A stretch of 64,000 nt of DNA from Candidatus Omnitrophota bacterium (GTDB lineage: Bacteria; Omnitrophota; Gorgyraeia; Gygaellales; Profunditerraquicolaceae), in contig JAPLLW010000012.1 of the NCBI GenBank assembly GCA_026387355.1, forward strand, positions 62,612-126,611, written 5' to 3'. Shown here in pieces: positions 2,818-63,270 of the stretch; positions within the stretch are counted from its first letter, which is position 1, and each line of letters opens with the position of its first letter. A program made the translations under genes and the position numbers. The notes under the pieces were generated by a model. The model ran no database searches. It saw nothing but the letters and a program-made list of their open reading frames with translations, and was not told the origin of the DNA.

Positions 2818-2873
2818 ATAGTTTGCGTATATAAGTATTTGTGTTAGGATAATTTTAATAATCAGGAGATCTC

Positions 2874-14787: not shown

Positions 14788-14937
14788 CGTCTCACCTTGT
14801 CTTGTTTCTCGCAGGGACGCTTGTTTTGCCCTAGCGTGGCAAAACTAAGCTCGGGTCGGCTGCGTCGCTCTCTGACACTAAGGTGACGGAACCATGCCCG
14901 CTCCTTGCCGACACGCCCTGCTCGAAATCAAGTCAAG
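14788..14937 (+). repeat. GC-rich ~150-bp intergenic repeat element, copy A (MITE-like, or a structured RNA), with imperfect terminal inverted repeats
   Basis: It is ~85% identical to 50766-50914. The left end 'CGTCTCACCTTGTCTTGTTTCTCGCAGG' and the right end 'CCTGCTCGAAATCAAGTCAAG' form an imperfect inverted repeat. An internal hairpin reads GTTTTGCC-ctagcgt-GGCAAAAC. It is sharply GC-rich in an AT-rich genome and starts 1 nt after the stop codon. Confidence 0.6.
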
Positions 14938-21617: not shown

Positions 21618-22493
21618 ATGAAGACCGAGGTAAAGAAGATTGATAGTAACGTAAGAGAGCTTAATGTAGAGATAAGTGGAGATGTAGTAAAAAATAAATT
21701 TGAAGATGTCTTTAAGCGCATAGGCTCGGAGGCAAAGGTTCCGGGATTTAGACCGGGGAATGCCCCGCGTGATATTTTAGAAAAGAATTATGCCGCACTT
21801 GCGCATGAGCAGGTATTAAAGGAGCTGGTTCCGGATATCTATAATGAGGCGATTAATAAAGAAGGGCTTGATGTTATTGAGATGCCCGAGATAACTGATG
21901 TGAAGCTTGAGAGGGAGCTACTCTCTTTTAAGGCAAAGGTTGAAGTAAGTCCTGAAATCAGCGTTAAAGACTATAAGGGTATTAAAATAAATTATAAGAG
22001 TGAAAATGTTTCTGCTGACGAAATTAAGCGCGCCGTTGATTCAATAAAAGAGTCGCGCAAGTTTGAGAAAATAGATGATAACCTGGCCAAGTCTTTAGGC
22101 TATCCGAATATGGCACAGCTAGAGAAGGTGCTAGAGAAGCAGATCTTTGTGCAGAAAGAAAATTCAGAGCGTCAAAAATCAGAGAGTAATATTATTGAAA
22201 GCCTGGTTAAGGGGCTGGATTTCAAGCTTCCGCAGTCTCTGGTTAAGCGCCAGCTTGAGGATATGGTCAGGCAGGCTAAAGTGGATTTAGCTTTAAAAGG
22301 AATGAGCCGCGAAAAAATAGATGAACAGGAGAAAAAGATTCGCGAGGAATTAATCCCTGAATCAGAGAAACAGGTTAAAGTTTATTTGGTGCTTGCGGCA
22401 ATAGCTAAGAAGGAGAATGTCGCCCAGGATGAACATATGCCGCGAAAAGTTATGGAGTTTATCATGAGGGAGGCAGATTGGAATATAAGTTAA
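21618..22493 (+). CDS. tig: Trigger factor lacking the central PPIase (FKBP) domain
   Basis: The N-terminal ribosome-binding domain carries the 'GFRPGNAP' signature, and a C-terminal chaperone arm is present. Only 291 aa remain, with no FKBP-type segment, and clpP follows directly. Confidence 0.75.
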
Positions 22494-25920: not shown

Positions 25921-27665
25921 AGAAAAGTATTACATTGATCCTATTGATTACTGTTTTAGCGCTTTTCCTTGCGATTACAAAAAAGGCTAATGCTAAGAAT
26001 GGCGAACTTACCATTATTTATACCGGCGAGACACATGCTATGCTTTATCCTTGCAATTGCCCTATTGAGCCGGATGGTGGAGTCGCAAGGAGGGCAACCT
26101 TAATTAAACGATTAAAGCTTGAGTCTCCCGATGTCCTAATTCTAGATTCGGGTAATTTTTCTGCCGGCGGCCCACTTGATCAGCAAACCCTGAATGCACA
26201 GATTGATAAACAACGTACGAGCGTTTATCTTAACGCTATGGAGCTAATGAAATATGATGCTGTAGCGCTTAGCGATGATGAATTTAATTTCGGTAAGGAT
26301 TACCTTGAAGCAAGTATAGGCAAGGTAAAATTGAATTTCCTTAGCGCTAATTTAAGGGCTAAAGGAAGCCTACCCTATATAATTAAAGGAGCCGCGGGGT
26401 TTAAGATTGGGATTATCGGTTTGACTAATGCTGCGGCAAAAAATAAAGCAGGCGATTTAAAGTTTGTTGAGCCAAAGAGTGCCCTGGCAGAGACTGTTAC
26501 TTCGCTTAAGAAAAAAGGCGTACAGTTAATAATCCTATTAAGTAATCTTGGAGAGCCTGAAGATTTAATTCTTTTAGAAAAGGTTCCCGATATTGATGTT
26601 ATTATTGATGGACATTCTCATGAAAAGGACGCCGTCCCATACGTTAAGGTCGGTAAAACATTTATTTTAAGGCCATCCTGGCAGGGTCGTCGGCTCTGTA
26701 AAGCTAGTTTTACAATTAAGAATAATAAGTTGGAAAGTCTGGGAGTTGATGAGATAAGGGTATCGGACAAGACTACCGATGATGCTGCAATACAGACTAT
26801 ATTGCCGCGCTGTTTTTCCGATGAAAATTGTAAAAAGACCGGATTTATTGGCTCATGTGAAAACGCCGCAAGCATTAATTCCTCCTGTTCATTTAAGGAG
26901 GCTAAAAAGATCCTCTTGACGGTAATTACATCCAAGGAGTGCTTAACCTGTAATACCGAACCGGTAGTCAGCTATTTTAAGAAGCAGTTCGCCGGGCTCG
27001 TTGTTTCATATATATATTACCCGGATAAAAATGCAGTTAAGCTTATTAAAGATCTCAAATTAATCGGTTTACCTGTCTACTTAGTAAGCAAAGAAGCAGA
27101 GGGAGAAAGTAATTTTGACAGTTTAAAGGTAAATTTGGAAGATAAAGGGTCAGCCTATTTATTAAAACCCGAGGTGGGGGGGTTAACTTATTTTATTGGT
27201 CGTGAAAAGATTGAAGGAAAATTGGATTTATTTCTTAGTCTCTATGATAAAAATACGGTTGCTTTATTGGATATGATAAGGGAATTTAACCCGGTATTAC
27301 ATTTTCTTGTTTTTGCAGATCAAGGTTCGATAAGTTCGCCAGGTGGCCTGGCTGAGACGGAAGAAGATGAACGTGCAGTCTGCATTCAGAAATATTATCC
27401 TAAATATTTCTGGCCGTATCTAACTTGTCGAGCAAACAATATCAATAGTTCTTGGTGGGAGGATTGTCTTTCTGGTGCCGATAATGAAAAGATCAAATCT
27501 TGCGCCAGGGGAGCTGAAGGCAGGGCATTGTTAAAAGAAAATTGTGGCTTAAATAAAGAACTTAGAATAATGTATGGCCCAACTTATCTATTGAATAATC
27601 AGGAAATCTTTACTTCTAATGGTGTCCTCTCTAGAGATGAGTTTAAGAGAATAATCAGGAGGTGA
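25917..27665 (+). CDS. Secreted multi-domain protein: a degenerate 5'-nucleotidase/metallophosphatase-like N-terminal domain fused to two Cys-rich thioredoxin/DsbA-like domains
   Basis: A signal peptide 'MKKSITLILLITVLALFLAITKKANA' is present. 'DDEFNFGKDY' and 'IDGHSH' resemble the 5'-nucleotidase 'GNHEFD' and 'GGHSH' motifs, but the first metal-binding motifs look degenerate. The C-terminal regions have CxxC-like pairs ('CLTCN', 'CRANN...C...C') and a DsbA-like composition. Confidence 0.45.
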   Translation: MKKSITLILLITVLALFLAITKKANAKNGELTIIYTGETHAMLYPCNCPIEPDGGVARRATLIKRLKLESPDVLILDSGNFSAGGPLDQQTLNAQIDKQRTSVYLNAMELMKYDAVALSDDEFNFGKDYLEASIGKVKLNFLSANLRAKGSLPYIIKGAAGFKIGIIGLTNAAAKNKAGDLKFVEPKSALAETVTSLKKKGVQLIILLSNLGEPEDLILLEKVPDIDVIIDGHSHEKDAVPYVKVGKTFILRPSWQGRRLCKASFTIKNNKLESLGVDEIRVSDKTTDDAAIQTILPRCFSDENCKKTGFIGSCENAASINSSCSFKEAKKILLTVITSKECLTCNTEPVVSYFKKQFAGLVVSYIYYPDKNAVKLIKDLKLIGLPVYLVSKEAEGESNFDSLKVNLEDKGSAYLLKPEVGGLTYFIGREKIEGKLDLFLSLYDKNTVALLDMIREFNPVLHFLVFADQGSISSPGGLAETEEDERAVCIQKYYPKYFWPYLTCRANNINSSWWEDCLSGADNEKIKSCARGAEGRALLKENCGLNKELRIMYGPTYLLNNQEIFTSNGVLSRDEFKRIIRR

Positions 27666-30909: not shown

Positions 30910-31290
30910 ATGGAAGAGAATATTAAGGGTAGGGCTATTATTATATTAGCAATATTGACTTTATTGCTTTTTATTCTCAATATAGGTTCGTGCGCTAGTT
31001 CTTTTAGCCAGGGTTCTGCTCGTAGAAAAGAGATGGCTCAACGTATGGACCTGGAAGAAAAGTTTGGTAAGCTTAATCAGGAGAAGGCAGCGGTCATTGA
31101 TAAATTAAAGGTAAAAGATAAAGAGCTGGACGATGAAAAAACAGCGCATATGGTTTCGAAAAAAGCGCTGCTTCAGGAACAGATGATTAGTCAGAGCCTG
31201 AAAGATGATTTACAAAAACTTACTAAGGTTAAGGAATCATTGGAAGCGCAGCTTAATCAAGTATTGTCTGGTAAGAAGGCCAAGAAATGA
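30910..31290 (+). CDS. Small membrane-anchored coiled-coil protein
   Basis: One N-terminal TM helix is followed by a charged heptad-like sequence. No recognisable family. It lies directly downstream of the OmpA-like gene. Confidence 0.45.
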   Translation: MEENIKGRAIIILAILTLLLFILNIGSCASSFSQGSARRKEMAQRMDLEEKFGKLNQEKAAVIDKLKVKDKELDDEKTAHMVSKKALLQEQMISQSLKDDLQKLTKVKESLEAQLNQVLSGKKAKK

Positions 31291-47978: not shown

Positions 47979-47982
47979 TGAA

Positions 47983-48033
47983 TCTGCCGTGTTTCTCGCT
48001 TAGCGGGTGGCGCCGTGACAGGACCCGCCAGAG
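47983..48033 (+). repeat. Short GC-rich repeat, copy D: a truncated left-TIR-like segment plus the 'GCGGGTGGCGCCGTGACAGGACCCGC' hairpin module
   Basis: 'TCTGCCGTGTTTCTCGC' resembles the left ends of elements A and B. The module GCGGGT-ggcgccgtgacagg-ACCCGC recurs at 50957-50982, at 51014-51038, and in reverse at 55625-55645. Confidence 0.45.
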
Positions 48034-48043
48034 TAATTAATTT

Positions 48044-49765: not shown

Positions 49766-50755
49766 ATGAAACTATCTAGCTTCGATTATAGCCTCCCCAA
49801 AGAATTAATTGCCCAGTATCCACTAGAAAAGCGCGAATCTGCAAAGCTTATGGTAGTTAAGCGCTCAACGCTAACTATAGAGCATTGCGTATTTAAAGAC
49901 CTGGGTAATTTTCTAAAAAAAGACGATCTTTTAGTTTTAAATGATACAAAGGTGCTAACCTGTCGACTCATCGGGCATAAGGCGACCGGAGGCAAGGTTG
50001 AAGTTTTGTTAACTAAGCGTAAATCCGGATCCATTTTTGAAGCAATGATTCAGCCCAGTCGGACAAAAGTCGGAGAGAAGATAATTTTTGGCCAGGGTAA
50101 AATAACCGGAATAGTCTCAAACCGTAGGGAGATATCTTTTAAGGTTAGCGATGCCAATGATATTTATAAGCTGGGTCAGGTGCCGCTGCCTCCTTATATC
50201 AGGAGAGAACCTGAAGAATTGGACAAAGAATATTATCAGACAGTTTATGCTGATAAAGAAGGAGCTATTGCATCACCTACAGCAGGATTACATTTTACCG
50301 ATGGATTACTTAAAGATTTAAGCGCAAGCGGAATCAATATTGCATATTTAACTTTGCATGTCGGCGTAGGCACATTTAAGCCGGTAGTTACTGATGATAT
50401 AACTGAGCATAGAATGGAACCGGAGTATTTTCAGGTTCCTGAGAATACGAAGCAAAAAGTAGAAGAGGCGCGTAAGGTTAAGGCGCGTATTATTGCCGTA
50501 GGCACAACTTCTCTGCGCGCGCTTGAAACATATGCTAATGGAGTTAAAGAAGGGCAAACGGATCTATTTATTTATCCCGGGTATAAATTTAAATTGGTAG
50601 ACAGCCTTTTAACTAATTTTCATCTGCCCAAGACTACGCTTTTTATGCTTGTTTGTGCTTTTGTCGGAGAGAAGCTGATGAAAGAGGCGTATCAAGAGGC
50701 AGTAGATAAGAAATACAGGTTTTACAGTTACGGCGATACGATGTTGATTATTTGA
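49766..50755 (+). CDS. queA: S-adenosylmethionine:tRNA ribosyltransferase-isomerase
   Basis: 'FDYSLPKELIAQYPLEKRESAKLMV', 'TLHVGVGTF' and 'AVGTTSLRALE'. Confidence 0.9.
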   Translation: MKLSSFDYSLPKELIAQYPLEKRESAKLMVVKRSTLTIEHCVFKDLGNFLKKDDLLVLNDTKVLTCRLIGHKATGGKVEVLLTKRKSGSIFEAMIQPSRTKVGEKIIFGQGKITGIVSNRREISFKVSDANDIYKLGQVPLPPYIRREPEELDKEYYQTVYADKEGAIASPTAGLHFTDGLLKDLSASGINIAYLTLHVGVGTFKPVVTDDITEHRMEPEYFQVPENTKQKVEEARKVKARIIAVGTTSLRALETYANGVKEGQTDLFIYPGYKFKLVDSLLTNFHLPKTTLFMLVCAFVGEKLMKEAYQEAVDKKYRFYSYGDTMLII

Positions 50756-50765
50756 AATATATTTA

Positions 50766-50914
50766 GCGTCTGTCTTGTCTTGTTTCTCGCAGGGACGCTT
50801 GTTTTGCCCCAGCGTGGCAAAACTGCGCTCGGGTCGGCTGCGTCGCTCGTCCGCGTTTCACTCGGACACCGTGCCCGCTCCTTGCCGACACGCCCTGCTC
50901 GAAATCAAGCCAAG
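50766..50914 (+). repeat. GC-rich ~150-bp intergenic repeat element, copy B (paralogue of 14788-14937)
   Basis: About 85% identical to copy A. The left end 'GCGTCTGTCTTGTCTTGTTTCTCGCAGG' and right end 'CCTGCTCGAAATCAAGCCAAG' form an imperfect inverted repeat. It has the same internal GTTTTGCC/GGCAAAAC hairpin and begins ~10 nt after the queA stop. Confidence 0.6.
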
Positions 50915-50956
50915 CCATTCGCTAAGCTTAGGCCATATATAAATAATTAAGGTTTA

Positions 50957-51038
50957 AGCGGGTGACGCGGCGACAGGTCCCCTACTTTTCGAGGCGAATA
51001 GCCGAGAACAAGTAGGGTGGCGACGCGGCAGGACCCGC
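50957..51038 (+). repeat. Palindromic GC-rich segment carrying two divergent copies of the 'GTGACAGGACCCG' module flanking an inner CCTACTT/AAGTAGG stem
   Basis: 'AGCGGGTGACGCGGCGACAGGTCCCC' and 'AGGGTGGCGACGCGGCAGGACCCGC' both resemble the module at 48002-48027. The segment abuts, and may overlap, the tgt start. Confidence 0.4.
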
Positions 51039-51056
51039 TTGAAATTAAGAATAAAT

Positions 51057-52190
51057 ATGTTTACTTTAATTCAACAAGACAAAAATAGTAAAGCACGTCT
51101 GGGCAAGCTAGCCACAGAGCATGGCGAAATTGAGACGCCGGTTTTTATGCCTGTTGGTACGCACGCTACTGTTAAAGGACTTTATCCCAAGGATATCTTA
51201 GAGTCTGGCGCGCAGATTATGCTTTCCAACACCTATCATTTATTTCTCCGGCCGGGTATGGATGTTATACGTAAGGCTGGGGGATTGCATAAATTTATCT
51301 CTTGGGAGAAGCCAATACTTACGGATAGCGGGGGATACCAGGTTTTTAGTCTTGCGCTTTTAAGGAAATTAAGCGACAAGGGAGTTGAGTTTCAATCGCA
51401 CATTGACGGATTCAAACATTTTCTCACCCCTGAAGATGTTGTTGATATACAGATTGATTTAGGTTCTGATATTATGATGCCTTTGGATGAGTGCGTGCAT
51501 TATCCCTGCACTAAGGATCATGCTGAGGTAGCCATGAAACGCACGCTTGGCTGGGCAAATCGTTCACGTAAGCATCTGCTTGAGCATAAAAAACATGGTC
51601 CGACAAAGAAACAATTGCTTTTTGGTATTGTGCAGGGAGCAACTTACGATGACCTGCGTAAAATTTGTGCCAAGGAGATTGTGGATATTGATTTTGACGG
51701 TTATGCTATAGGAGGAGTTTCTGTTGGAGAACCCAGCGAGTTAATATATAATATACTTGATTATTCCGCATCGTTACTACCTTCAGAAAAACCACGATAT
51801 GCTATGGGCATAGGCTATCCTCCTGATATTGTTGAGGCGGTGGATAGAGGTATAGATATGTTTGATTGCGTGGTGCCTACGCGTTACGGAAGAAACGGCA
51901 CGGCTTTTACCAGCAGGGGAAAAGTCCCCATTAAGAATGCCGCATACACCGAAGACCTTAGGGCTCTTGATGAGGAGTGCTTGTGTTATGTCTGCAAGAA
52001 TTTCAGCCGTTCATACCTGCGGCATCTATTTAATGCGCAGGAGATGTTAGGGCTTACGCTACTTTCATTGCATAATGTTTATTATTTCTTGGATTTGGCA
52101 CGAAAGATCCGCGAAGCGATTAAGAAAAATCAGTTTAGCGAATTTAAAAAAGAATTTTTATCAAAATATAATAATTCCGCATGCGCATAG
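51057..52190 (+). CDS. tgt: Queuine tRNA-ribosyltransferase
   Basis: 'ETPVFMPVGTHATVKG', the catalytic region 'LTDSGGYQV', and the zinc site 'CLCYVC...H'. The track offers a TTG at 51039 that lies inside the repeat, so the ATG at 51057 is preferred. Confidence 0.88.
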   Translation: MFTLIQQDKNSKARLGKLATEHGEIETPVFMPVGTHATVKGLYPKDILESGAQIMLSNTYHLFLRPGMDVIRKAGGLHKFISWEKPILTDSGGYQVFSLALLRKLSDKGVEFQSHIDGFKHFLTPEDVVDIQIDLGSDIMMPLDECVHYPCTKDHAEVAMKRTLGWANRSRKHLLEHKKHGPTKKQLLFGIVQGATYDDLRKICAKEIVDIDFDGYAIGGVSVGEPSELIYNILDYSASLLPSEKPRYAMGIGYPPDIVEAVDRGIDMFDCVVPTRYGRNGTAFTSRGKVPIKNAAYTEDLRALDEECLCYVCKNFSRSYLRHLFNAQEMLGLTLLSLHNVYYFLDLARKIREAIKKNQFSEFKKEFLSKYNNSACA

Positions 52191-53243: not shown

Positions 53244-53847
53244 TCTGCTTTTCTTTGAGCGCAAGCTTAAGAAAAAAGGCTTTGATTTAATTATCGGTGT
53301 GGATGAGGCAGGGCGTGGTCCGTTGGCAGGTCCGGTGGTGGCAGCAGCAGTAGCGTTAAAAAGTTCGAATTTTGTAAACCGCATAGATGATTCAAAGAAG
53401 CTGACTCCTAAGCTGCGTGAGAAGGCACTACTTGAGATTAACGCAAAATCAATATCCGGTATAAGTATTGTTAGCCATAAGGTGATCGACCGTATAAATA
53501 TTCTAGAAGCAACTAAGCTTGCAATGCGAAGCGCTGTTCTTTCTTTGATAAAAAAAATTAAGGATTTAGAGTCCTTGCGCATACATGTTATTGTTGACGG
53601 TAATTTTATTCCTGATTTAGGTCTACCCTGCACAGCTATTATTAAAGGCGATGCTAAATCAATGAGTATTGCTTGTGCATCAATCCTAGCTAAGGTTACC
53701 CGAGACCGCATTATGGAAGATTTCGATTCGATTTATCCGCAGTACGGTTTTGCTAAACATAAGGGTTACCCCACAAAAGCGCACAGGGAAGTCTTAAGAA
53801 GAATAGGGCCGTCCGTAATACATAGAAAGAGTTTTCACTATGTCTAG
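53194..53847 (+). CDS. rnhB: Ribonuclease HII
   Basis: '[21 protein letters not shown]' carries the DEAGRG catalytic motif. The annotated ATG overlaps rplS by 50 nt, so the true start is uncertain. Confidence 0.85.
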
Positions 53848-54220
53848 TGACAATCTGGATCTAGGTAGGCAGGCGGAAGAGAGCGCTACGCGTTTTCTTA
53901 AAAGCCATGGGTATAAAATAGTCTGCCGTAATTATAAGATTAAGTTAGGCGAGATCGATATTATCGCAAAAGATAAAGATACGTTTTGTTTTGTGGAGGT
54001 TAAATCTCGTAGAAGTGATAAGTTTGGTTTGCCTGCAGAGGCAGTATCCAGGCTAAAGCAGCTTCAGATTTCCAGGGTTGCTTTAAGTTTTCTGAAAACA
54101 AAAGGAATGTTAGATAGCAAGGCCAGATTTGATGTTGTTGCAATAGATTATTCTAATCCTACGGAAAAGATAGATCTGATTAAAGATGCATTTGAGTTAA
54201 GGGGAGGCTATGCCTACTAA
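53840..54220 (+). CDS. yraN: YraN-family (UPF0102) predicted endonuclease
   Basis: 'GEIDIIAKDKDTFCFVEVKSR' is the YraN signature. The rnhB-yraN adjacency is conserved. Confidence 0.8.
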   Translation: MSSDNLDLGRQAEESATRFLKSHGYKIVCRNYKIKLGEIDIIAKDKDTFCFVEVKSRRSDKFGLPAEAVSRLKQLQISRVALSFLKTKGMLDSKARFDVVAIDYSNPTEKIDLIKDAFELRGGYAY

Positions 54221-54782
54221 AATGTATAAGCAGGGACCAATCGATAAATATATAGACGATCTGGCTGCTAAATTACCGGCTCCGGGTGGCGGATCAGCTG
54301 CTGCTCTTAATGCCTCAATGGGGGCTGCCCTAATCAGTATGGTGGTTAATTTTACTCTCGGTAAACCCAAATACGCAGAATACGAAAAAGAACTCAAAGG
54401 TATTTTGGGTAAATCCGAGAATCTCAAGGGAGAATTTTTAAGGCTCATGGATCTTGATGTAATTGCCTATCAGAGTAAGAATATGCGGGATGCATTAAAT
54501 GTCCCTTTTATGCTAACCAGGCTTTGTTGCGAAGGGCTAAAGCTCTGTCCGCCGCTTTTAAAAATGGGAAATAAAAATCTCATAAGTGATGTGGCAGTAG
54601 CGGCGATAATGCTTGAGTCTGCTTATGCATGCGCCTATTTTAACGTTATTATAAATCTAAATACAATTGCTGATACGAAACTGACTCAGGTAGTAGAAAA
54701 AGAGTTAAAACAAAAAGACAAGATAGTGAAAAAGATAAGAAAAGACGTGGAGGATAAAGTTGGCAAAATTATTAGAGGGTAA
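54210..54782 (+). CDS. Cyclodeaminase/cyclohydrolase-family protein (FTCD C-terminal domain-like, possibly a methenyl-THF cyclohydrolase)
   Basis: 'LPAPGGGSAAALNASMGAAL' is the hallmark of the formiminotransferase-cyclodeaminase C-domain family. It is adjacent to folD. Confidence 0.65.
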   Translation: MPTKMYKQGPIDKYIDDLAAKLPAPGGGSAAALNASMGAALISMVVNFTLGKPKYAEYEKELKGILGKSENLKGEFLRLMDLDVIAYQSKNMRDALNVPFMLTRLCCEGLKLCPPLLKMGNKNLISDVAVAAIMLESAYACAYFNVIINLNTIADTKLTQVVEKELKQKDKIVKKIRKDVEDKVGKIIRG

Positions 54783-55593
54783 ACCCTTAGCTGAAGCGAT
54801 TAAGGAAAAGATCAGGCTTGATGTAGCGGGGATGAGTAAAAAGCCAGTTTTAGCTAGCGTTATTGTAGGAGATAATGCCGGAGCTGCTTCTTATGCGAAA
54901 TCCCAAGCGAAGGTCGCTGAGTCTTTGGGTATCGTTTACCAATTGCATGCTTTGGGTAATGATACTACAGAAGTAACACTAGTTGATTTTATCAAGAAGC
55001 TCAACAACGATAAGGATGTAAACGGGATAATTGTGCAAATGCCCCTTCCTGCGCAGATAGACGCAAAAAAGATTAGCCAGCTGATTGCTCCGGAAAAAGA
55101 TGTTGAAGGAATGCATCCTGCAAATATGGGTAAGATTGTTTTTGAGAAAAGCAAAGTACTTCCTTGCACGCCTGCGGCAGTTGTTGAGTTATTGAATAGT
55201 ACCGGAGTTGACCTTTATGGCAAGGAAGTGGTAGTTGTCGGCCATAGCGAGATCGTGGGTAAGCCGGTCGCGTTATTACTTCTAGATAAATTTGCTACGG
55301 TTACAGTATGCCATATCGGAACTTCTAAGGCAGGAAAACTAGAGGAGCATGTTAAAAAGGCGGAAGTTTTGATTGTAGCTGTTGGCCGCGCCGGATTGAT
55401 CAAGGGTGATTGGGTTAAAGATGGCGCAATTGTAATAGATGTTGGAATTAACAGAGTGGCGGATAAAATTGTGGGGGATGTAGAGTTTGAGGTAGCTGAG
55501 AAAAAGGCTTCCTATATTACACCTGTTCCAGGTGGCGTTGGCCCGCTTACTGTCACTATGCTCATGCGCAACCTCGTTGAGCTAGCTAAGTAA
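54760..55593 (+). CDS. folD: Bifunctional methylene-THF dehydrogenase / methenyl-THF cyclohydrolase
   Basis: 'GIIVQMPLP', 'CTPAAVVELL' and 'VVVGHSEIVGKPVALLL...VTVCH' and 'TPVPGGVGPLTVTML'. Confidence 0.9.
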   Translation: MAKLLEGKPLAEAIKEKIRLDVAGMSKKPVLASVIVGDNAGAASYAKSQAKVAESLGIVYQLHALGNDTTEVTLVDFIKKLNNDKDVNGIIVQMPLPAQIDAKKISQLIAPEKDVEGMHPANMGKIVFEKSKVLPCTPAAVVELLNSTGVDLYGKEVVVVGHSEIVGKPVALLLLDKFATVTVCHIGTSKAGKLEEHVKKAEVLIVAVGRAGLIKGDWVKDGAIVIDVGINRVADKIVGDVEFEVAEKKASYITPVPGGVGPLTVTMLMRNLVELAK

Positions 55594-55600
55594 TATTTAA

Positions 55601-55736
55601 TCCGTTCTTTTCTCGTTTAATTATTTTACGGGTCCTGTCACGGGGCGCTTCTTGCGCTAAGATGCGCTTCGAAGCATCCCCGTGCCACCCGTAAAAAGTA
55701 TAATGTGTACCTGCGAGAAACAAGACAAGGCAGACG
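55601..55736 (+). repeat. GC-rich repeat element, copy C: a long imperfect hairpin (55623-55699) bounded by a degenerate left end and a near-perfect inverted copy of the A/B left TIR at its right end
   Basis: The right end 'CCTGCGAGAAACAAGACAAGGCAGACG' (55710-55736) is the reverse complement of the copy B left end 'CGTCTGTCTTGTCTTGTTTCTCGCAGG' with 1 mismatch. The left end 'TCCGTTCTTTTCTCG' resembles the same TIR. The core hairpin is TTTACGGGT...CACGGGG...GATGC-GCTTCGAAGC-ATC...CCCCGTG...ACCCGTAAA, and it contains the reverse of the GTGACAGGACCCG module. Confidence 0.5.
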
Positions 55737-55749
55737 ATAAATTTATTGG

Positions 55750-56628
55750 TTGAAAAGAATGACCTTCAAAGAGAAAATCCAGGCAAATAAGTTTTTAGTT
55801 ACTTCTGAAATCGGCCCGCCAAAAGGAATTGAATTCAGCCATCTTTTAGAGGATGCAGAATTAATCCGTACCCGCGTAGATGCGATTAATGTTACTGACC
55901 TGCAGAGCTCAGTGATGCGGCTGGGGTCTTTAGCTGTCTGCAGTATTTTAAAACAGAACGGCTTTGAGCCGATATTTCAGATGACCTGCCGCGATAGGAA
56001 CCGCCTGGCCTTACAGTCGGATCTGCTATCAGCAGCTGCTTTTGGAATTGAAAATGTTTTAATGCTTACCGGTGACCATACTACCTTAGGCGACCATCCT
56101 GACGCAAAACCAGTTTTTGATTTAGATTCAGTGCAATTGCTGCAGGTAGCTAAAAAACTCCAGGAAGGCGCTGATATGAAAGGCAATAAGTTAACCGGGG
56201 CTAGCCCTAAGTTTTGCTTGGGCGCGGTTGTTAATCCCGGAGCTGATCCAATTGAGCCGCAGATCATAAAGATGGAGAAAAAGATTGCTGCGGGCGCAGA
56301 GTTCTTTCAGACCCAGGCAGTATATGATCTAAAAATCTTCGAGAATTTCTTGAGTAAGACCAGGCATCTTAAAACTAAGATCATGGCCGGGATTGTTTTA
56401 CTTAAATCCGCAGGAATGGCTAAATATATGAATAAGAATGTTGCGGGGGTATTTGTTCCGGATAATCTGATTAAAGAGATGGAAGAGACAAAAGATAAGA
56501 CAGCGCAGTCAATTGAGATTGCCTCGCGCCTGATCAACGAATTAAAGCCTATGTGTGACGGAATACATATTATGCCTATTGGCTGGGATAAGTTAGTCCC
56601 GCGTGTTTTAGACGCTTCAAGTTTATGA
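55750..56628 (+). CDS. metF: 5,10-methylenetetrahydrofolate reductase
   Basis: 'FLVTSEIGPPKG', 'NVLMLTGD' and the 292-aa size. The start may be a TTG at 55750 or the ATG at 55759. Confidence 0.85.
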   Translation: MKRMTFKEKIQANKFLVTSEIGPPKGIEFSHLLEDAELIRTRVDAINVTDLQSSVMRLGSLAVCSILKQNGFEPIFQMTCRDRNRLALQSDLLSAAAFGIENVLMLTGDHTTLGDHPDAKPVFDLDSVQLLQVAKKLQEGADMKGNKLTGASPKFCLGAVVNPGADPIEPQIIKMEKKIAAGAEFFQTQAVYDLKIFENFLSKTRHLKTKIMAGIVLLKSAGMAKYMNKNVAGVFVPDNLIKEMEETKDKTAQSIEIASRLINELKPMCDGIHIMPIGWDKLVPRVLDASSL

Positions 56629-56647
56629 TAATCAAAAGGAGACTTTT

Positions 56648-58573
56648 ATGTCAAGTGTCGAAAAGAAATCTATAGATTTAGCTTCGCAGGAGATGTTGCA
56701 AAAGGCCCAGGAAGAAAATATTAAAACTGCCTGGGATAGATTGGAATCGCAAGAGCCGCAATGCGGTTTTGGTAAATTAGGTGTATGTTGTACGGTCTGC
56801 GATATGGGCCCCTGTAGGGTGGATCCTTTTGGAGAAGGGGCTCAAACCGGGGTATGTGGTGCCGGAGCTGATACTATCGCAGCCAGAAATTTAGCGCGCA
56901 AGGTTGCGGTAGGCGGTTCAGCGCATTCCGATCATGGAAGGGATGTAGCGCATACGCTTTCTTTAGCTAGCCAGGTACATACACATGGCAAGTCTAAAAC
57001 TCATACACATGATTATGAAATATTAGATTTAGAAAAACTTAAAAGTTTAGCTCTGGAGTTTGGTGTAAACATTGATCAGTCAAAAGAGCAGATTGCCAAG
57101 GAGCTATCTAAAAAGCTACTCGAAGAATTCGGTAAACAAGAGGGGGAGCTTACTTTTTGCAAGCGCGCCCCAAAAAAACGCCAGGAGATCTGGAAGAAGT
57201 TAGGTATTACTCCGCGCGGTATAGATAGGGAAGTAGTTGAGCTTTTGCATACCACTACCATGGGTATGGATAATGATTATAAGAATCTTGTCACAAGCAG
57301 TATGCGCGGCGCTCTCTCTGACGGCTGGGGCGGCTCGATGATTGCAACTGAAGTGCAGGATATTATGTTGGGTAGCCCTGTGCCGATAAGGGGCAAGGTT
57401 AATCTTGGCGTATTAAAAGAGAATTATGTTAATATCCTCGTGCACGGACATGAACCGGTTTTATCTGAGATGGCGGTAAAGGCTGTGCAGGATCCGGAGT
57501 TAATAGCACTAGCTAAAAAGTTAGGCGCTGAAGGGATCAATTTAGCCGGGATCTGTTGTACTGCTAATGAAATCTTGATGCGTAACGGCATCCCTGTAGC
57601 CGGTAATTTTCTACAACAGGAATTAGCTATTATTACAGGTGCTGTTGAGTTAATGATGGTCGATGTGCAGTGTATCATGCCGGCTTTGCATGAGGTTACC
57701 AGTTGTTTTCATACTAAGCTTGTTACTACCAGTCCCAAGGCGCGTTTTCCCGGAGTTCAGCACATCGAGTTCGAAACTAAAAACGCTTATGAAATTGCCA
57801 AGCAGATTATAAAAATCGGAGTTGAGAATTTTGCCAATAGAAACAAATCAAGGGTAAATATTCCCAAGCACGAGGTTGATCTTGTCGCTGGTTTTACTAA
57901 AGAAGGCGTGTCTAAGATGTTGGGTGGTGTTTATCGTCCATCATATAGGCCTTTGAATGAGGCAATTATTGCTGGAAAGATCCGCGGCCTGGCCGGGGTA
58001 GTCGGTTGTAATAACCCCAAACAGACGCATGATCATTTTCATACAACTTTAGTTAAAGAACTGATTAAGAATGATGTCTTGGTTCTACAGACCGGCTGTT
58101 CTGCTATTGCTTGCGCTAAGCAAGGATTACTCGTTCCCGAAGCAGCTAAGCTTTATGCGGGGAAAGGTTTACTTGAGATTTGCGAGGCAGTGGGAATTCC
58201 CCCGGTTCTGCATTTAGGTTCTTGCGTAGATAACTCCCGTATTTTAGTGGCAGCCTCTCAGGTTATTGCAGAAGGTGGCTTAGGAGAAGATTTATCGGAT
58301 ATTCCCGCGGCAGGTTGTGCACCTGAGTGGATGTCGGAGAAGGCAATTACTATCGGATTCTATTTTGTAGCTTCCGGAGTCTATACTATTTTCGGCTCAA
58401 GCCCGTTTGCAACACTGGGTAGCCCCAACCTTACAAATTATCTAACTAAGGAATTAGAGCAGGTTGTCGGAGGCAGATTTGAATTTTGCGATGATCCCTT
58501 AGAGATGGCGCAGTTGATGATCGCGCATATTGATAAAAAACGCGCAGCATTAAAATTAAAGGCCTGGGGATAA
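56648..58573 (+). CDS. cooS: Anaerobic carbon-monoxide dehydrogenase catalytic subunit (CooS / AcsA)
   Basis: The N-terminal cluster motifs 'CGFGKLGVCCTVCDMGPCR', the mid-protein 'GHEP' and 'GCNNP', and the C-cluster ligands. It is 641 aa. Confidence 0.85.
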   Translation: MSSVEKKSIDLASQEMLQKAQEENIKTAWDRLESQEPQCGFGKLGVCCTVCDMGPCRVDPFGEGAQTGVCGAGADTIAARNLARKVAVGGSAHSDHGRDVAHTLSLASQVHTHGKSKTHTHDYEILDLEKLKSLALEFGVNIDQSKEQIAKELSKKLLEEFGKQEGELTFCKRAPKKRQEIWKKLGITPRGIDREVVELLHTTTMGMDNDYKNLVTSSMRGALSDGWGGSMIATEVQDIMLGSPVPIRGKVNLGVLKENYVNILVHGHEPVLSEMAVKAVQDPELIALAKKLGAEGINLAGICCTANEILMRNGIPVAGNFLQQELAIITGAVELMMVDVQCIMPALHEVTSCFHTKLVTTSPKARFPGVQHIEFETKNAYEIAKQIIKIGVENFANRNKSRVNIPKHEVDLVAGFTKEGVSKMLGGVYRPSYRPLNEAIIAGKIRGLAGVVGCNNPKQTHDHFHTTLVKELIKNDVLVLQTGCSAIACAKQGLLVPEAAKLYAGKGLLEICEAVGIPPVLHLGSCVDNSRILVAASQVIAEGGLGEDLSDIPAAGCAPEWMSEKAITIGFYFVASGVYTIFGSSPFATLGSPNLTNYLTKELEQVVGGRFEFCDDPLEMAQLMIAHIDKKRAALKLKAWG

Positions 58574-58578
58574 TTTTT

Positions 58579-59025
58579 ATGAAGAAGTTATTCTATGAAG
58601 TTAAAAAATGCCTGGGTTGTAAATCTTGTGAAGTTGCCTGCGCAGTTGCGCATTCGGCTAGTGGAGATTTATTCAAGGTTTTTCATGAAGAAAAGCTATC
58701 TCTACCTAGAAAGAAGGTTCTTTCATCCAAAGGAAATAATTATCCGGTATCCTGTCGTCATTGTAAAGACCCTAAGTGTGTGGATGCCTGTATGGCTGCG
58801 GCATTAGTTTATGATACTAAAAGCGGTATTGTCGAACACATAGAAGAGCGTTGCGTGGGTTGCTGGATGTGTGTGATGGTCTGTCCGTATGGAGCGATTC
58901 GTCCTAATATTAAATCAAAGTTGCCTTTACGTTGCGATAAATGCAAGGATAAGCTTGAGCCTGCCTGTGTTAAGGCTTGTCCAACGCAAGCAGTGATCTG
59001 GCAGGAAGAGGAAGTGGCCCGATGA
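58579..59025 (+). CDS. cooF: 4Fe-4S ferredoxin-type iron-sulfur protein (CooF-like)
   Basis: Multiple CxxCxxC...CP motifs ('CLGCKSCEVAC', 'CRHCKDPKCVDAC', 'CVGCWMCVMVCP', 'CDKCKD...CVKACP'). Confidence 0.75.
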   Translation: MKKLFYEVKKCLGCKSCEVACAVAHSASGDLFKVFHEEKLSLPRKKVLSSKGNNYPVSCRHCKDPKCVDACMAAALVYDTKSGIVEHIEERCVGCWMCVMVCPYGAIRPNIKSKLPLRCDKCKDKLEPACVKACPTQAVIWQEEEVAR

Positions 59026-60287
59026 AAAATTATCTTATAATCGGAAATTCAGCAGCAGGGATTTCTGCCGTAGAAGCGATAAGAAGTAAGGATAAGGAAT
59101 CCAAGATCACGCTTTTATCAAGCGAAGATTACCCCGGGTATTGCCGTTGCTTAATCTCGTATTTTCTGGCTGGGCAGATAAAAGAGGATAAACTTTTATA
59201 CCGGCCAGAGAGTTTTTATAAAGATAATAATGTTGAATTGTTCTTAAATAAAAAAGTAAGCCGGGTTGACCCTAAAAAGAATAAAGTTGTCTGTGAAGAC
59301 AGGACTCAAATAAGTTATGATCAGTTGTTAATTGCTACGGGTTCTTCACCAAAGTTTCCCGAGATACAGGGTATTAAGAAAAAAGGGGTTTTTGGTTTAC
59401 GTACGGTTAAAGATACTAAAGAGATTGATGGATTGCTTCCTATAACCAGAGCAGCAGCCGTATTAGGGGGCGGGTTAGTCGGCCTTAAAGCAGCTTATGC
59501 CCTTAAGAAAAGAGGGGTAGATGTAAAGGTTGTGATTAAATCAGACCAGGTTTTATCGCAGATGCTCGATTTTGAGGCAGCTTTATTTGTGCAGAAGAGA
59601 TTAGAGGAGAATGGTATTGATGTAGTCTTGGGTCAGGACGTAAAAGAGATTATCGGCGAAGGGGATATCCGGGCGGTAAAATTAAGCTCCGGCAAGACTT
59701 TTGAGGCCTCTTTAATTGTTGTAGGTAAAGGTGTTTCGCCGAACATTGATTTAGTTAAGGATGCCGAGATAAAAACCGGCGAAGGTATAGTTACGGATAA
59801 ACTATTGCAGACAAATGTTCCGAATATTTATGCCTCAGGTGATGTAGCTGAGACTTTTGATATAACTATCGGAAAGTATGCGGTTAATGCGCTTTGGCCG
59901 GTTGCGATTGAACAGGGCAGGATCGCAGGTGCGAATATGACAGGAGATGCTATTAACTACGACGGTTCTTTAGGTATAAATTCCATCGAATTTTTTGGCC
60001 TTCCTACCGTATCTTTAGGGATTTATAAAAAAGATAAAGCAGATACTTCCCTTGAGGAGTTAAAATTAAGCGATGCCAAATCAGGCAAATACAAAAAACT
60101 GACATTGAGAGGTAATTTACTGATAGGTGCGATTTTAGTAGGAGATATAAAATCAAGCGGTCTATTTTTGAGATTAATAAGAGAGAAGATAGATATCTCA
60201 CCTATAAAAGATAAGCTACTTGAAGAAAACTTTGGATTTCCTGATTTATTAGAACTCATAAAAGATAAGGAGAAGATTTATGTCTAA
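58977..60287 (+). CDS. FAD/NAD(P)-dependent pyridine nucleotide-disulfide oxidoreductase (the CooS-associated oxidoreductase type)
   Basis: FAD-binding 'YLIIGNSAAGISAVEAI' and NAD-binding 'AAAVLGGGLVGLKAAYAL', plus the typical cooS-cooF-oxidoreductase gene order. Confidence 0.8.
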   Translation: MSNASSDLAGRGSGPMKNYLIIGNSAAGISAVEAIRSKDKESKITLLSSEDYPGYCRCLISYFLAGQIKEDKLLYRPESFYKDNNVELFLNKKVSRVDPKKNKVVCEDRTQISYDQLLIATGSSPKFPEIQGIKKKGVFGLRTVKDTKEIDGLLPITRAAAVLGGGLVGLKAAYALKKRGVDVKVVIKSDQVLSQMLDFEAALFVQKRLEENGIDVVLGQDVKEIIGEGDIRAVKLSSGKTFEASLIVVGKGVSPNIDLVKDAEIKTGEGIVTDKLLQTNVPNIYASGDVAETFDITIGKYAVNALWPVAIEQGRIAGANMTGDAINYDGSLGINSIEFFGLPTVSLGIYKKDKADTSLEELKLSDAKSGKYKKLTLRGNLLIGAILVGDIKSSGLFLRLIREKIDISPIKDKLLEENFGFPDLLELIKDKEKIYV

Positions 60288-62460
60288 GATTGTGGCAACT
60301 TTAGCGATTCAAGGAGCAGCCAAGCTTTATGCTCAGGCCTTTGATTCTTTAAATAAAGCAATTAAAGAAAAAGGTGAGAACCAAAAGATAGGTTTTCCTG
60401 AGACGGCATTTTATCTGCCTATGGCAAATGCACTTTTGGGTGCTAAGGTTGAGACCTTAAAAGATGCGCTGCCTATTTTGGAGCACGCTAAAAGTTTAAT
60501 TAAAGAAGTTCCTTCCGAAAAAGTATGGCTTCCTTATTTAGGTGATGCATTGGATGCCGGTATGGCGGCTTTATTCTGCGAAGAGATAATTGTTGCTTTG
60601 CGTTATTTATATGGCATAGATCCGGAGAAGGATTGCGTGGGGTTTTGCACGGATTCTATTTTGCGCCAGCTAGGAATTCAGCTTGTTGATGGCCGTATGC
60701 CCGGAGTTGCGCTTATATTAGGAGCTGCTCCTGATAACAAAAAGGCTGTTGAGATAGTCAGGCAATTGCAGGAGAAGAATATTCTTACTTTTGTTGGATC
60801 ATCAACTAACGGCCGTTCGATTATCGACCAGCTTCTGGAAGAGAATGTAGAGATGGGCTGGGAGAATTATATTGTTCCTTACGGTCGCGATACCATCTCT
60901 TCTATATATGTATTAAATTTTGCTATACGGTCTACTTTGACATTCGGTGGGATTAAAGCAGGCCAGGCGCAGAAATGCCTTGCCTATACCCGAGATCGCG
61001 TTCTTGCTTTTGGTCTGGCTTTAGGAGCAGTTGATGAATACAAGGTTGCAACCGGCGCCGGAGCTATAGCTATGGGTTTTCCGGTTATCGCTGATACAGA
61101 TATCCCAGAGATAAAGGCATCTGGCGTGACTACCTATGAAGCGTTGGTAAAAGAGCTTGATTACAAAAAAATTGTCTGGCGCGCTCTTGAAGTAAGAGGA
61201 ATCAAGGTGAAGGTAAGCAATATTCCTGTGCCGGTTGCTTATGCAGCGGCATTTGAGGGAGAGAGGGTGCGTAAAGAACAGTTGCATGTTGAGTTTGGCG
61301 GTAAGGCAAGCACTGCTTTTGAGTTTCTTTCTACCGGTAAAGCAGATGAACTAGAGGATGGCAAAATAGAATTAATCGGTTCGGATATTGATCAGTTGCC
61401 TAAAGGGAGCAAGTCTTTACCTTTAGCTATAATTGTTGAGGTTTCCGGCAGAAAGATGCAAAAAGATTTTGAGCCGATCTTAGAACGTCAGATCCACCGT
61501 TTTACAAATTACGCCATGGGTTTAATGCATGTAGGCCAGCGCGATATGAGCTGGGTCAGGATTAGTAATGATGCTTTTGCTAAGGGTTTTCGTCTAAAGC
61601 ACCTGGGTGTAATTATCCATGCTATGTTGCACCAGGAGTACAGTGCTATCGTAGATAAAGTGCAAGTGAAGTTATATACTACCCAATCTGATGTTGATAA
61701 ATTGCTCGTGCATGCAAAAAAGGTTTATGAGGAGCGCGATGAGCGTATCGGTGAAATGACTGATGAAAGCGTAGATACTTATTATTCATGTTTATTGTGT
61801 CAGTCATTTGCGCCTAATCATGTTTGCGTTGTTACTCCAGAGAGGCTTGGTCTTTGCGGAGCGTATTCTTGGCTGGATGCCAAGGCTTCTTTTGAGATTA
61901 CTCCTACCGGGCCAAACCAGCCGATTTTAAAAGGCAGTACGCTTGATAAAAGATTAGGCCAGTGGGAGAATGTGAATGAATTTGTAAAACAAAAGTCAAA
62001 TAAGAGCGTAGAAACTGTGAGTATGTATTCGCTTATGGATTCTCCTCAGACATCCTGCGGTTGCTTTGAATGTATACTTGCAATAATCCCCGAGGCTAAC
62101 GGGGTAATGATTGTGAACCGCGATTATTCAGGCTTGACTCCTTCGGGGATGAGTTTTACTACTTTAGCCGGTTCGGTTGGAGGAGGGGTACAGACTCCGG
62201 GATTCTTGGGTGTAGGTAAATTATATATTTTAAGTAAGAAATTTATTTATGCCGAAGGCGGGCTTAAGCGCCTGGTCTGGATGCCCAAAGAATTAAAAGA
62301 ATTGCTAGGAGATAAATTAAAGAAACGTTGTCAGGAGATTGGTGAGCCAGACCTATTGGATAAGATCGCGGATGAGACGAATGCTACAACCTCTGATGAG
62401 CTATTGAGTTATCTAGCTAAGGTGGGTCATCCGGCACTTGCTATGGATGCATTAATGTAA
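60280..62460 (+). CDS. acsB: Acetyl-CoA synthase (CODH/ACS complex A-cluster subunit AcsB/CdhC)
   Basis: The A-cluster Cys ligands 'CLLCQSFAPNHVCVV...LCGAY' and the Ni-binding 'SCGCFECILAI' (Cys-Gly-Cys). It is 726 aa. Confidence 0.85.
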   Translation: MSKIVATLAIQGAAKLYAQAFDSLNKAIKEKGENQKIGFPETAFYLPMANALLGAKVETLKDALPILEHAKSLIKEVPSEKVWLPYLGDALDAGMAALFCEEIIVALRYLYGIDPEKDCVGFCTDSILRQLGIQLVDGRMPGVALILGAAPDNKKAVEIVRQLQEKNILTFVGSSTNGRSIIDQLLEENVEMGWENYIVPYGRDTISSIYVLNFAIRSTLTFGGIKAGQAQKCLAYTRDRVLAFGLALGAVDEYKVATGAGAIAMGFPVIADTDIPEIKASGVTTYEALVKELDYKKIVWRALEVRGIKVKVSNIPVPVAYAAAFEGERVRKEQLHVEFGGKASTAFEFLSTGKADELEDGKIELIGSDIDQLPKGSKSLPLAIIVEVSGRKMQKDFEPILERQIHRFTNYAMGLMHVGQRDMSWVRISNDAFAKGFRLKHLGVIIHAMLHQEYSAIVDKVQVKLYTTQSDVDKLLVHAKKVYEERDERIGEMTDESVDTYYSCLLCQSFAPNHVCVVTPERLGLCGAYSWLDAKASFEITPTGPNQPILKGSTLDKRLGQWENVNEFVKQKSNKSVETVSMYSLMDSPQTSCGCFECILAIIPEANGVMIVNRDYSGLTPSGMSFTTLAGSVGGGVQTPGFLGVGKLYILSKKFIYAEGGLKRLVWMPKELKELLGDKLKKRCQEIGEPDLLDKIADETNATTSDELLSYLAKVGHPALAMDALM

Positions 62461-62469
62461 TATTTTCTC

Positions 62470-62497
62470 TTGACGCAATAGATTTAAGGTATATAAT
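62470..62497 (+). promoter_or_regulatory. Putative sigma70 promoter (TTGACG, 16-nt spacer, TATAAT) upstream of the TPR gene
   Basis: A near-consensus -35 at 62470-62475 and -10 at 62492-62497 in the 45-bp gap after acsB. Confidence 0.35.
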
Positions 62498-62505
62498 TAT
62501 TAATA

Positions 62506-63270
62506 ATGAAGGCCAAGCAAACCCACGGAGAAAACTTGAAAAAAACAATCCTGATTTTAAGCTGTTTTTTATTTCTACTTGCTACTTATATCTTTGCAGC
62601 AGATGATCTTGGGGATAAAAGAAATAAAGCGCTTACTGATCTACAGCTTCAAGCCAGGGATTATCGCGAGCAAGGTTTAAAGATGCAGGAAGTAGGGGAT
62701 TTGGATGCTGCCACGAAGCTATATCAGAAATCAGAACAGCTTGATCCATCCTATGCGGTTGTCTGTAATGATCTGGGCATTATTTATGAAGCTAAAGGCG
62801 AGATAGATAGGGCAGAAGAAAGTTATCTTAAGTCTATAAATATCGACCCGCATTATTTGAGCGCTTATAGCAACTTGGCTATTCTTTATGAAGGGGAGCG
62901 TAAATTAGGTAAGGCTGCTTTTTGTTGGAAGAGAAGGGTTGATTTAGGGGATCCCAAAGACCCCTGGACTTTAAAAGCTAGGCAGCGTTTAGAGGATATC
63001 CGTCTTGCTTTATCTCCTAGGCCTTCCTCAGAGACTCAGGAAAGAGAAGTTGTCGGTCTTATGAAAGATGTTACAAACGAGAAATACGTTGTAAGGCATG
63101 ATGATAAGGCATTCGCCAGGAAGAAATTCCAGGAGGCAAAATTTAGCTATGGTAAAGAAGATTACGCTACGGCCTTACAAGATGCATCAGATGCTCAGTT
63201 TCTGGACCCGGATAATAAAGAAATAGATGCTTTTATTGTGAAAACCCAGAATAGGGCGTTAACACAATAA
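62506..63270 (+). CDS. Secreted or membrane-anchored tetratricopeptide-repeat protein
   Basis: An N-terminal hydrophobic segment and TPR-like repeats ('AATKLYQKSEQLDPSYAVVCNDLGIIYEAKGEIDRAEESYLKSINIDPHY...'). Confidence 0.7.
   Translation: MKAKQTHGENLKKTILILSCFLFLLATYIFAADDLGDKRNKALTDLQLQARDYREQGLKMQEVGDLDAATKLYQKSEQLDPSYAVVCNDLGIIYEAKGEIDRAEESYLKSINIDPHYLSAYSNLAILYEGERKLGKAAFCWKRRVDLGDPKDPWTLKARQRLEDIRLALSPRPSSETQEREVVGLMKDVTNEKYVVRHDDKAFARKKFQEAKFSYGKEDYATALQDASDAQFLDPDNKEIDAFIVKTQNRALTQ

Follow-up and report, generated by a model that had tools for sequence, protein, structure and literature searches.

A Wood-Ljungdahl core gene cluster with an embedded cooS-cooF-fnor unit in an Omnitrophota bacterium

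The Wood-Ljungdahl pathway (WLP) has been reconstructed for uncultured Omnitrophota of the Velamenicoccia and Gorgyraia (PMC10066038), and the locus described here belongs to the same phylum and families and encodes the same enzymes: FolD, MetF, AcsB, and CooS/F. WLP-bearing Omnitrophota are described in that survey as having Fhs, FolD, MetF, and an "AcsB-E complex", either with CooS/F, as exemplified by Fontincolimonas calida, or without it, as in V. archaeovorus, and the families named include QZM4-1-77. The searched parts of the survey and its supplements give the presence or absence of the pathway; gene order, an embedded flavoprotein gene, and a separation of acsCDE from acsB were not found in them. 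Here, a 64-kb stretch of DNA from a Candidatus Omnitrophota bacterium (contig JAPLLW010000012.1; the whole stretch, positions 1-64000, is called the window) was analyzed. Positions 54210-62460 contain seven co-oriented genes that are the core of the bacterial WLP: fchA, folD, metF, cooS (or acsA), cooF, fnor, and acsB.

Two other described systems share parts of this locus. Cluster II of Acetobacterium woodii is arranged fhs1-fchA-folD-rnfC2-metV-metF, with a metF of 896 bp (PMC10472528, PMC6925170). The order fchA-folD-metF is the same in the window, which is without metV and rnfC2. A preliminary description of this DNA had called the FTCD-type cyclohydrolase beside FolD and the small MetF atypical of acetogens; fchA-folD is also found in A. 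woodii, and a length of about 290 aa is normal for MetF, so neither feature sets the locus apart. Clusters of a carbon monoxide dehydrogenase that contains nickel (Ni-CODH), CooF, and an FAD-dependent NAD(P) oxidoreductase (FNOR) have been described in Geobacter sulfurreducens and Clostridium ljungdahlii/autoethanogenum (Inoue et al. 2019, PMC6344411), and this unit is presumed to connect the oxidation of CO with NAD(P)H (PMC6344411, PMC8776680). The window has the same cooS-cooF-fnor triad, in which CooF is of the COG0437 type and the flavoprotein of the COG1251 type.

Genes and metal sites of the locus

Genes were called by Pfam and NCBIfam profile searches of the open reading frames (ORFs) of the window (Table 1), with NCBIfam cutoffs of 478 bits for TIGR01702, 800 bits for NF040764, and 275 bits for the FchA equivalog model. 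Both searches recovered every gene of the preliminary description in the collinear order given there, and the acsB call was upheld by its profile hidden Markov model. FchA was called at the family level only (138 bits against the equivalog cutoff); a Shine-Dalgarno sequence, AAGGGGAGG, lies upstream of its gene. The N-terminus of FolD, LAKLLEGKPL from a TTG start, agrees with MAKLLEGKPL in relatives. The metF ORF opens at a TTG at 55750, and homology to relatives (MTFKEKIQ) makes the ATG at 55759 the likely start; the best NCBIfam match of MetF was the MTHFR half of PRK08645. Similarly, the fnor ORF opens at a TTG at 58977, and the likely start by homology is the ATG at 59022, in an ATGA overlap with the cooF stop. 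The junctions had been described as overlaps of 2 to 50 nt, which holds for four of them (11, 23, 4, and 8 nt); the others are gaps, of 5 nt, 156-165 nt, and, between metF and cooS, 19 nt with no metV in between.

The metal-site motifs of the two central enzymes are intact. AcsB aligned end to end with the acetyl-CoA synthase (ACS) of Carboxydothermus hydrogenoformans (7zkj_B, E = 2e-222), and the A-cluster ligands were conserved: YYSCLLCQSFAPNHVC (CxxC...C), GLCGA, and SCGCFE. Both the [4Fe-4S] cysteines and the Cys-Gly-Cys nickel site are thus intact in this alignment, and the N-terminal CODH-docking domain is present (PF18537 CODH_A_N, residues 23-110). The cooS gene is 1.7 kb upstream of acsB. 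The nearest solved structure to CooS was CODH2 of Thermococcus AM4 (6t7j), followed by the D. vulgaris CODH and then by the CODH subunit of the C. autoethanogenum CODH/ACS (PDB 6ytt), for which the score of 635 bits was about equal to those for stand-alone CODHs. The B/D-cluster cysteine motif was confirmed in the alignment to 6t7j, and the stretches that we take to hold the C-cluster ligands were conserved in it. Both motifs quoted in the preliminary description, CGFGKLGVCCTVCDMGPCR in CooS and SCGCFECI in AcsB, were found.

The two genes between cooS and acsB encode the ferredoxin CooF and the flavoprotein FNOR. CooF has 16 cysteines in four CxxCxxCxxxC-type motifs, and from these it could hold up to four [4Fe-4S] clusters. 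Two dinucleotide-binding motifs are present in FNOR, for which the best NCBIfam match was PadH, the epsilon subunit of NADH-dependent phenylglyoxylate dehydrogenase (306 bits, below the cutoff). PadI was among the top NCBIfam matches of CooF, also below its equivalog cutoff.

Gene order in relatives and the partner genes

A scan with AcsB, at one genome per species, gave 80 loci, nearly all from Candidatus Omnitrophota. The order trmD-rplS-rnhB-yraN-(fhs)-fchA-folD-metF-(cooC)-cooS-cooF-fnor-acsB-TPR-polA, where TPR is a tetratricopeptide-repeat gene, is kept in about 20 of the Omnitrophota loci that were fetched. The ribosomal-side flank through polA is spanned by L003, L007, L014, L015, L023, L026, L029, and L031, and about a dozen further loci show part of the order before the contig ends. 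AcsB was 69-82% identical to that of the window in the syntenic loci, with a best match of 82%. Locus L015, which has the layout of the window, is from QZM4_1.bins.77, the QZM4-1-77 of the survey, with the accession GCA_023819035.1 and a completeness of 96%. JAUYCX01 and JAKLEP01 are further high-completeness assemblies that share this layout. In the supplement of Seymour et al. 2023, the metagenome-assembled genome (MAG) QZM4_1.bins.77 and a second syntenic one, CAIRWO01, are placed in the Velamenicoccia, Gygaellales, and Profunditerraquicolaceae, a lineage with genomes of ~1.2-1.7 Mb (PMC10066038). Other Omnitrophota (L083-L088) have the cooS-cooF-fnor-acsB block as well, as do MAGs labeled Elusimicrobia, Clostridia, and Planctomycetia (L032, L035, L038, L040). 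Because about 20 Omnitrophota loci keep it and the block recurs in other phyla, the gene order is a widespread, lineage-typical arrangement of the Omnitrophota class Velamenicoccia rather than the unusual order it had been taken for.

Some positions in this arrangement vary. In many relatives a gene for a 564-aa Fhs takes up the 1.7 kb that separate yraN from fchA (L003, at 2201-3895, L004, L005, L007, L013-L015, L023, L026, and L029-L031), and in a deeper branch CooC is encoded between metF and cooS. The window, unlike many of its Omnitrophota relatives, has neither fhs nor cooC in cis, which, together with the absence of metV, is notable within the lineage; yraN and fchA overlap, and there is no trace of fhs at their junction. 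A further position, the slot between cooF and acsB, was always occupied by an NAD(P)H-type module of one of two unrelated kinds: FNOR, or NuoE/NuoF-like genes with 2Fe-2S/4Fe-4S genes (L039, 6520-9592; L041, 6924-9998; L053; L060, 6322-9450; L081, 2636-5662; L082, 2706-5774). A metF without a MetV or Hdr neighbor is shared with the relatives.

Several partner genes of the pathway are missing from the window. No tblastn match was found in the 64 kb with AcsC, RACo, AcsF, AcsD, AcsE, Fhs, CooC, or NuoE/F from relatives as queries (AcsC and AcsD from locus L041), and the Pfam scans of the window ORFs detected no MetV, RnfC2, or Hdr-Mvh, with no direct search by MetV sequence. The tblastn and Pfam scans, with the remaining ORFs read by eye, therefore agree with the earlier statement that acsC/D, acsE, fhs, and metV/hdr are absent. 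It had also been considered that acsCDE might adjoin the window in the same operon. This was rejected, as the relatives with the same synteny have TPR-polA at this place and no acsCDE within 10 kb downstream of acsB.

The genes acsC-RACo-acsF-acsD-acsE come after acsB in several Omnitrophota and also in other phyla (L032, L041, L047, L078, L089, L091, L095). L047 has a full contiguous cluster including cooS-cooF-fnor; L078, L089, L091, and L095 are CODH-less, yet have these five genes directly after acsB. In L088, metF-cooS-cooF-fnor-acsB is followed by one inserted gene and then by acsC-RACo-acsF-acsD-acsE. Since this locus resembles the window no less than the window's own lineage does (80% identity for CooS, 77% for CooF, and 69% for AcsB), the ancestral cluster was contiguous, and a split between acsB and acsC probably came later. 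AcsC homologs annotated as Omnitrophota are abundant, and those nearest to the AcsC of L088 include two on contigs that begin with >450 nt other than acsB ahead of acsC. L093 carries acsC-RACo-acsF-acsD-acsE as a stand-alone, acsC-led cluster, and L098, from a metagenome scan with an AcsC alignment, carries acsC-RACo-acsF, also stand-alone, up to the contig end. These contigs show that split clusters exist, and we infer that the missing partner genes are quite likely to lie elsewhere in the genome of the window. The gene contexts of 11 AcsC homologs were either contiguous with acsB or from unrelated assemblies, and none placed acsC in an assembly with the layout of the window. The protein-position index had no entry for the window's AcsB. 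When AcsB and AcsC were compared by the ranges of their NCBI protein accessions, no pair came from one assembly, the metagenome scan gave no link to the window's genome, and no per-genome acsCDE table was found in the searched parts of the supplements of Seymour et al. (PMC10066038).

Whether CooS is the true partner of AcsB was addressed by comparing AcsB of the window with that of 46 loci with cooS in cis and 24 CODH-less loci. In the latter, close relatives of the window (L044, L055, L057-L077, L079), metF is directly followed by acsB without cooS or cooF, a layout that fits the published "partial WLP" type. MetF, FolD, and FchA of this group resemble the window's to the same degree as do their counterparts in the CooS-bearing loci. 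The middle and C-terminal catalytic domains of its AcsB are 71-87% identical to the window's, against 42-47% for the N-terminal, CODH-docking domain; in relatives with cooS the N-domain is 71-85% identical, and all three domains are about equally conserved. The difference between N- and C-terminal identity averaged about -2 points with cooS in cis and ranged from -32 to -43 points in the CODH-less loci, which form one clade and thus represent essentially one evolutionary event rather than 24. This coupling nevertheless indicates that, where cooS is present, the partner keeps the AcsB N-domain from changing. The divergence on cooS loss (43-46% versus 74-82% identity) argues that the CooS of the window is the true partner of AcsB and acts as AcsA. 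It also indirectly supports a putative physical CODH-ACS complex with a CO tunnel.

Remnants of fnor were seen in some relatives without cooS and cooF. Their acsB ORFs have an N-terminal extension (L059, 8990-12073; L057, 5301-7847; L061, 9599-12184), which in L059 is an in-frame fusion to a degenerate FNOR-like domain of 300 aa that retains the FAD motif but not the NAD motif, and of which only ~125 aa are left in L057 and L061. In L030 and L027, which have neither cooS nor cooF, a separate fnor-like gene is still present. This set looks like a decay series, or like a retained role for the flavoprotein domain.

The losses in the relatives also bear on whether the pathway of the window is complete. 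The corrinoid Fe-S protein (CFeSP), the methyltransferase, and perhaps Fhs could have been lost in genome reduction, in which case CooS-CooF-FNOR alone would detoxify CO or supply reducing power as a CO:NAD(P)+ oxidoreductase, FchA, FolD, and MetF would serve biosynthetic one-carbon (C1) metabolism only, and AcsB would be a relic or have a side role. Such an outcome is in keeping with the failure to find acsCDE, fhs, and cooC in 64 kb, with family genomes of only ~1.2-1.7 Mb (PMC10066038), and with stepwise loss at this locus in relatives, where cooS and cooF are gone, fnor remnants are fused to acsB, and fhs is lost in cis; CODH-CooF-FNOR is also held to be an independent CO-oxidizing unit in other bacteria (PMC6344411, PMC8776680). 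However, AcsB is full length, has all A-cluster motifs, and scores above the equivalog cutoff, and the 74-82% identity of its catalytic domains even to CODH-less relatives indicates purifying selection. AcsC-led clusters without acsB occur in the clade, and AcsB-E is counted as present in these families in the published survey, as far as its searched parts go (PMC10066038). A truly incomplete pathway is therefore considered unlikely.

Proposed working of the pathway

We consider it probable that the locus is the conserved bacterial WLP core of an Omnitrophota bacterium with an ultra-small genome and that its partners are encoded elsewhere. FchA, FolD, and MetF would take a C1 unit from 10-formyl-tetrahydrofolate to 5-methyl-tetrahydrofolate, and CooS, as the CODH partner of AcsB, would interconvert CO2 and CO. 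Electrons would pass from CooS to the four-cluster ferredoxin CooF, then to the flavoprotein FNOR, and from there to or from NAD(P)(H); the NuoE/NuoF-like genes in the FNOR slot of other loci suggest such a pyridine-nucleotide link. AcsB would form acetyl-CoA from CO, the methyl group, and CoA, or split acetyl-CoA in reverse. Fhs, the corrinoid Fe-S protein AcsCD, the methyltransferase AcsE, RACo, and the nickel chaperone AcsF/CooC would be supplied from other parts of the genome.

Several points weigh against this proposal. The redox potential of CO2/CO is about -520 mV and that of NAD(P)H about -320 mV, so that reducing CO2 with NAD(P)H is uphill by about 200 mV and a link through FNOR favors, and better fits, CO oxidation; for CO2 fixation, reduced ferredoxin or a tight coupling with the formation of acetyl-CoA would be required. 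MetF is without a MetV or Hdr partner in cis. In the searches above, no acsC/D/E, fhs, cooC/acsF, or RACo was tied to the window's genome or to an assembly with the same layout. In addition, the biochemistry of this kind of FNOR had yet to be studied according to PMC6344411.

The direction of flux might also be mainly the reverse, as in the oxidative acetyl-CoA pathway of syntrophic acetate oxidizers. CO from acetyl-CoA cleavage by AcsB would then be oxidized by CooS, with electrons passing via CooF-FNOR to NAD(P)+, and the methyl group would be oxidized via MetF, FolD, and FchA to formate. An NAD(P)+-reducing exit is thermodynamically favorable for CO oxidation, and the NuoE/NuoF-like genes that can replace FNOR are typical of NAD-linked redox enzymes. 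The searched parts of Seymour et al. report no formate dehydrogenase for these lineages and refer to "acetogens or syntrophs" with reversible enzymes (PMC10066038). The same source, though, lists sugar fermentation, Pta/Ack, and Rnf among the functions encoded by these lineages, which favors use of the pathway as an electron sink (PMC10066038). The parts are identical in both directions and differ in flux only, and the direction cannot be told from sequence. Mainly oxidative operation seems quite improbable to us, and the proposal of a conserved WLP core with its partners elsewhere is preferred.

A more tentative extension, which we hold to be rather unlikely, is that in Omnitrophota and the neighboring Planctomycetes-Verrucomicrobia-Chlamydiae (PVC) and Elusimicrobia lineages the CODH/ACS is hard-wired to the pyridine-nucleotide pool instead of to free ferredoxin, perhaps in a confurcating manner, via CooF with FNOR or a NuoE/NuoF-like module, or, more boldly, that AcsB in the window's genome works without a corrinoid protein. 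To our knowledge, no CODH/ACS wired to NAD(P)H via CooF and FNOR has been characterized.

Surroundings of the locus and comparison with known systems

Table 1. Features of the WLP locus and its boundaries (window coordinates).
Feature	Coordinates	Strand	Evidence or remark
yraN (UPF0102)	53840..54220	+	Pfam PF02021; upstream boundary gene; overlaps fchA by 11 nt
fchA, FTCD_C-type methenyl-tetrahydrofolate cyclohydrolase, 190 aa	54210..54782	+	Pfam PF04961, 155 bits
folD, methylene-tetrahydrofolate dehydrogenase/cyclohydrolase, 277 aa, TTG start	54760..55593	+	Pfam PF00763 + PF02882 (both domains)
folD-metF spacer	55594..55749	.	GC-rich hairpin ~55625-55700; inverted 41-nt repeat copy 55707-55747
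metF, methylene-tetrahydrofolate reductase, 289 aa	55759..56628	+	Pfam PF02219 (MTHFR), 115 bits
cooS/acsA, Ni-CODH catalytic subunit, 641 aa	56648..58573	+	Prismane; TIGR01702, 662 bits (cutoff 478)
cooF-like ferredoxin, 148 aa	58579..59025	+	Pfam Fer4_11; NCBIfam HydN/PadI-like
fnor, FAD-dependent NAD(P) oxidoreductase, 421 aa	59022..60287	+	Pfam Pyr_redox_2 + Pyr_redox + Rubredoxin_C
acsB, acetyl-CoA synthase, 726 aa	60280..62460	+	NF040764, 1045 bits (cutoff 800); CODH_A_N + CdhC + ACS_CODH_B_C
Promoter-like site TTGACG-16-TATAAT before TPR gene	62470..62497	+	11/12 positions; consensus match only
TPR-repeat gene, downstream boundary	62506..63270	+	Pfam; acsB-TPR-polA order kept in relatives

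The cluster ends cleanly after acsB, as had been proposed, with a promoter-like match, the TPR gene, and then polA (5'-3' exonuclease), which starts at 63325. Upstream are ruvB, queH, a GHL10 gene, queA, tgt, trmD, rplS, rnhB, and yraN. Elsewhere in the window are genes for lipopolysaccharide (LPS)/Kdo synthesis, trigger factor, clpP, serA, purA, a GH57 enzyme, and isoprenoid genes, as well as proS, nusA, infB, trpS, and scpA. Most of the other ORFs were housekeeping and LPS genes by Pfam, and the rest, read by eye, look like genes of the same kinds. All credible genes of the window are on the + strand, and the GC skew is positive throughout. The trigger factor (21618-22493, 291 aa) has Trigger_N and Trigger_C without the PPIase domain, and in the LPS block a single ORF of 650 aa (5750-7702) joins a lipid A acyltransferase domain (Lip_A_acyltrans) to an ELM1-like one (PF06258). 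The ORFs at 18-683 (221 aa), 25917-27665 (582 aa), and 30910-31290 (126 aa) had no Pfam match at E <= 1e-5.

The repeat element that had been noticed between folD and metF is present, as a strong GC-rich hairpin (z = -4.8) and an inverted repeat copy of 41 nt that corresponds to the end of a ~140-nt element; the repeat also occurs at 14795/14796 and 50756. The two ~140-nt copies (14796-14937 and 50774-50914) are 96% identical. The repeat family is GC-rich and intergenic in a genome of 40% GC, with fragments at 47979-48043, 50970-51038, and 55625-55747, and a second type of GC-rich hairpin is found at three sites in the window. The 23-nt core of the repeat was absent from 95 related loci. The folD-metF junction of relatives ranges from 20 nt to 3.8 kb (L004, L005, L010, L019, L061), with unrelated small ORFs inserted in L019 and L061, and is therefore taken to be an insertion hot spot. 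A riboswitch or other known RNA in the spacer was considered and rejected, as no Rfam family, including tRNA and rRNA, matched at the gathering score anywhere in positions 1-64000; at E <= 10, positions 55400-55900 gave nothing but chance matches, and 50700-51100 had no match.

In comparison with acetogens, of which A. woodii has a separate acs cluster, the window merges methyl- and carbonyl-branch genes in one string. It has cooF and fnor between the CODH and ACS genes, and acsC, acsD, acsE, and cooC are not adjacent, whereas its AcsB is of the three-domain bacterial type, as theirs is. The described Ni-CODH/CooF/FNOR clusters stand alone and are read as CO-oxidizing; in the window the triad is between metF and acsB, and the CODH is apparently the partner of ACS. 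CooF and FNOR also resemble PadI and PadH (NF045766 and NF045765), with both scores below the equivalog cutoffs. PadH and PadI are a flavoprotein and a ferredoxin-like subunit that together connect a low-potential Fe-S enzyme with NAD. The catalytic partner of that pair is a 2-oxoacid oxidoreductase, that of the window's pair is CODH, and we read the likeness as one of analogous wiring rather than membership.

The locus is thus the Omnitrophota form of the bacterial WLP core, with an embedded CODH/CooF/FNOR unit and split from acsCDE. It represents an already known type of pathway, adds one genome to those for which the pathway has been reconstructed in uncultured Omnitrophota, and leaves the picture of acetogenesis unchanged. 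The occurrence of cooS-cooF-fnor-acsB across phyla and the exchange of FNOR for NuoE/NuoF-like modules point to a predicted NAD(P)H-linked mode of CODH/ACS, and the cooS-cooF deletion in close relatives is a natural experiment in which AcsB keeps its catalytic domains conserved and its docking domain drifts. Both the NAD(P)H link and the drift of the docking domain are open to tests with cloned genes without culturing the organism.

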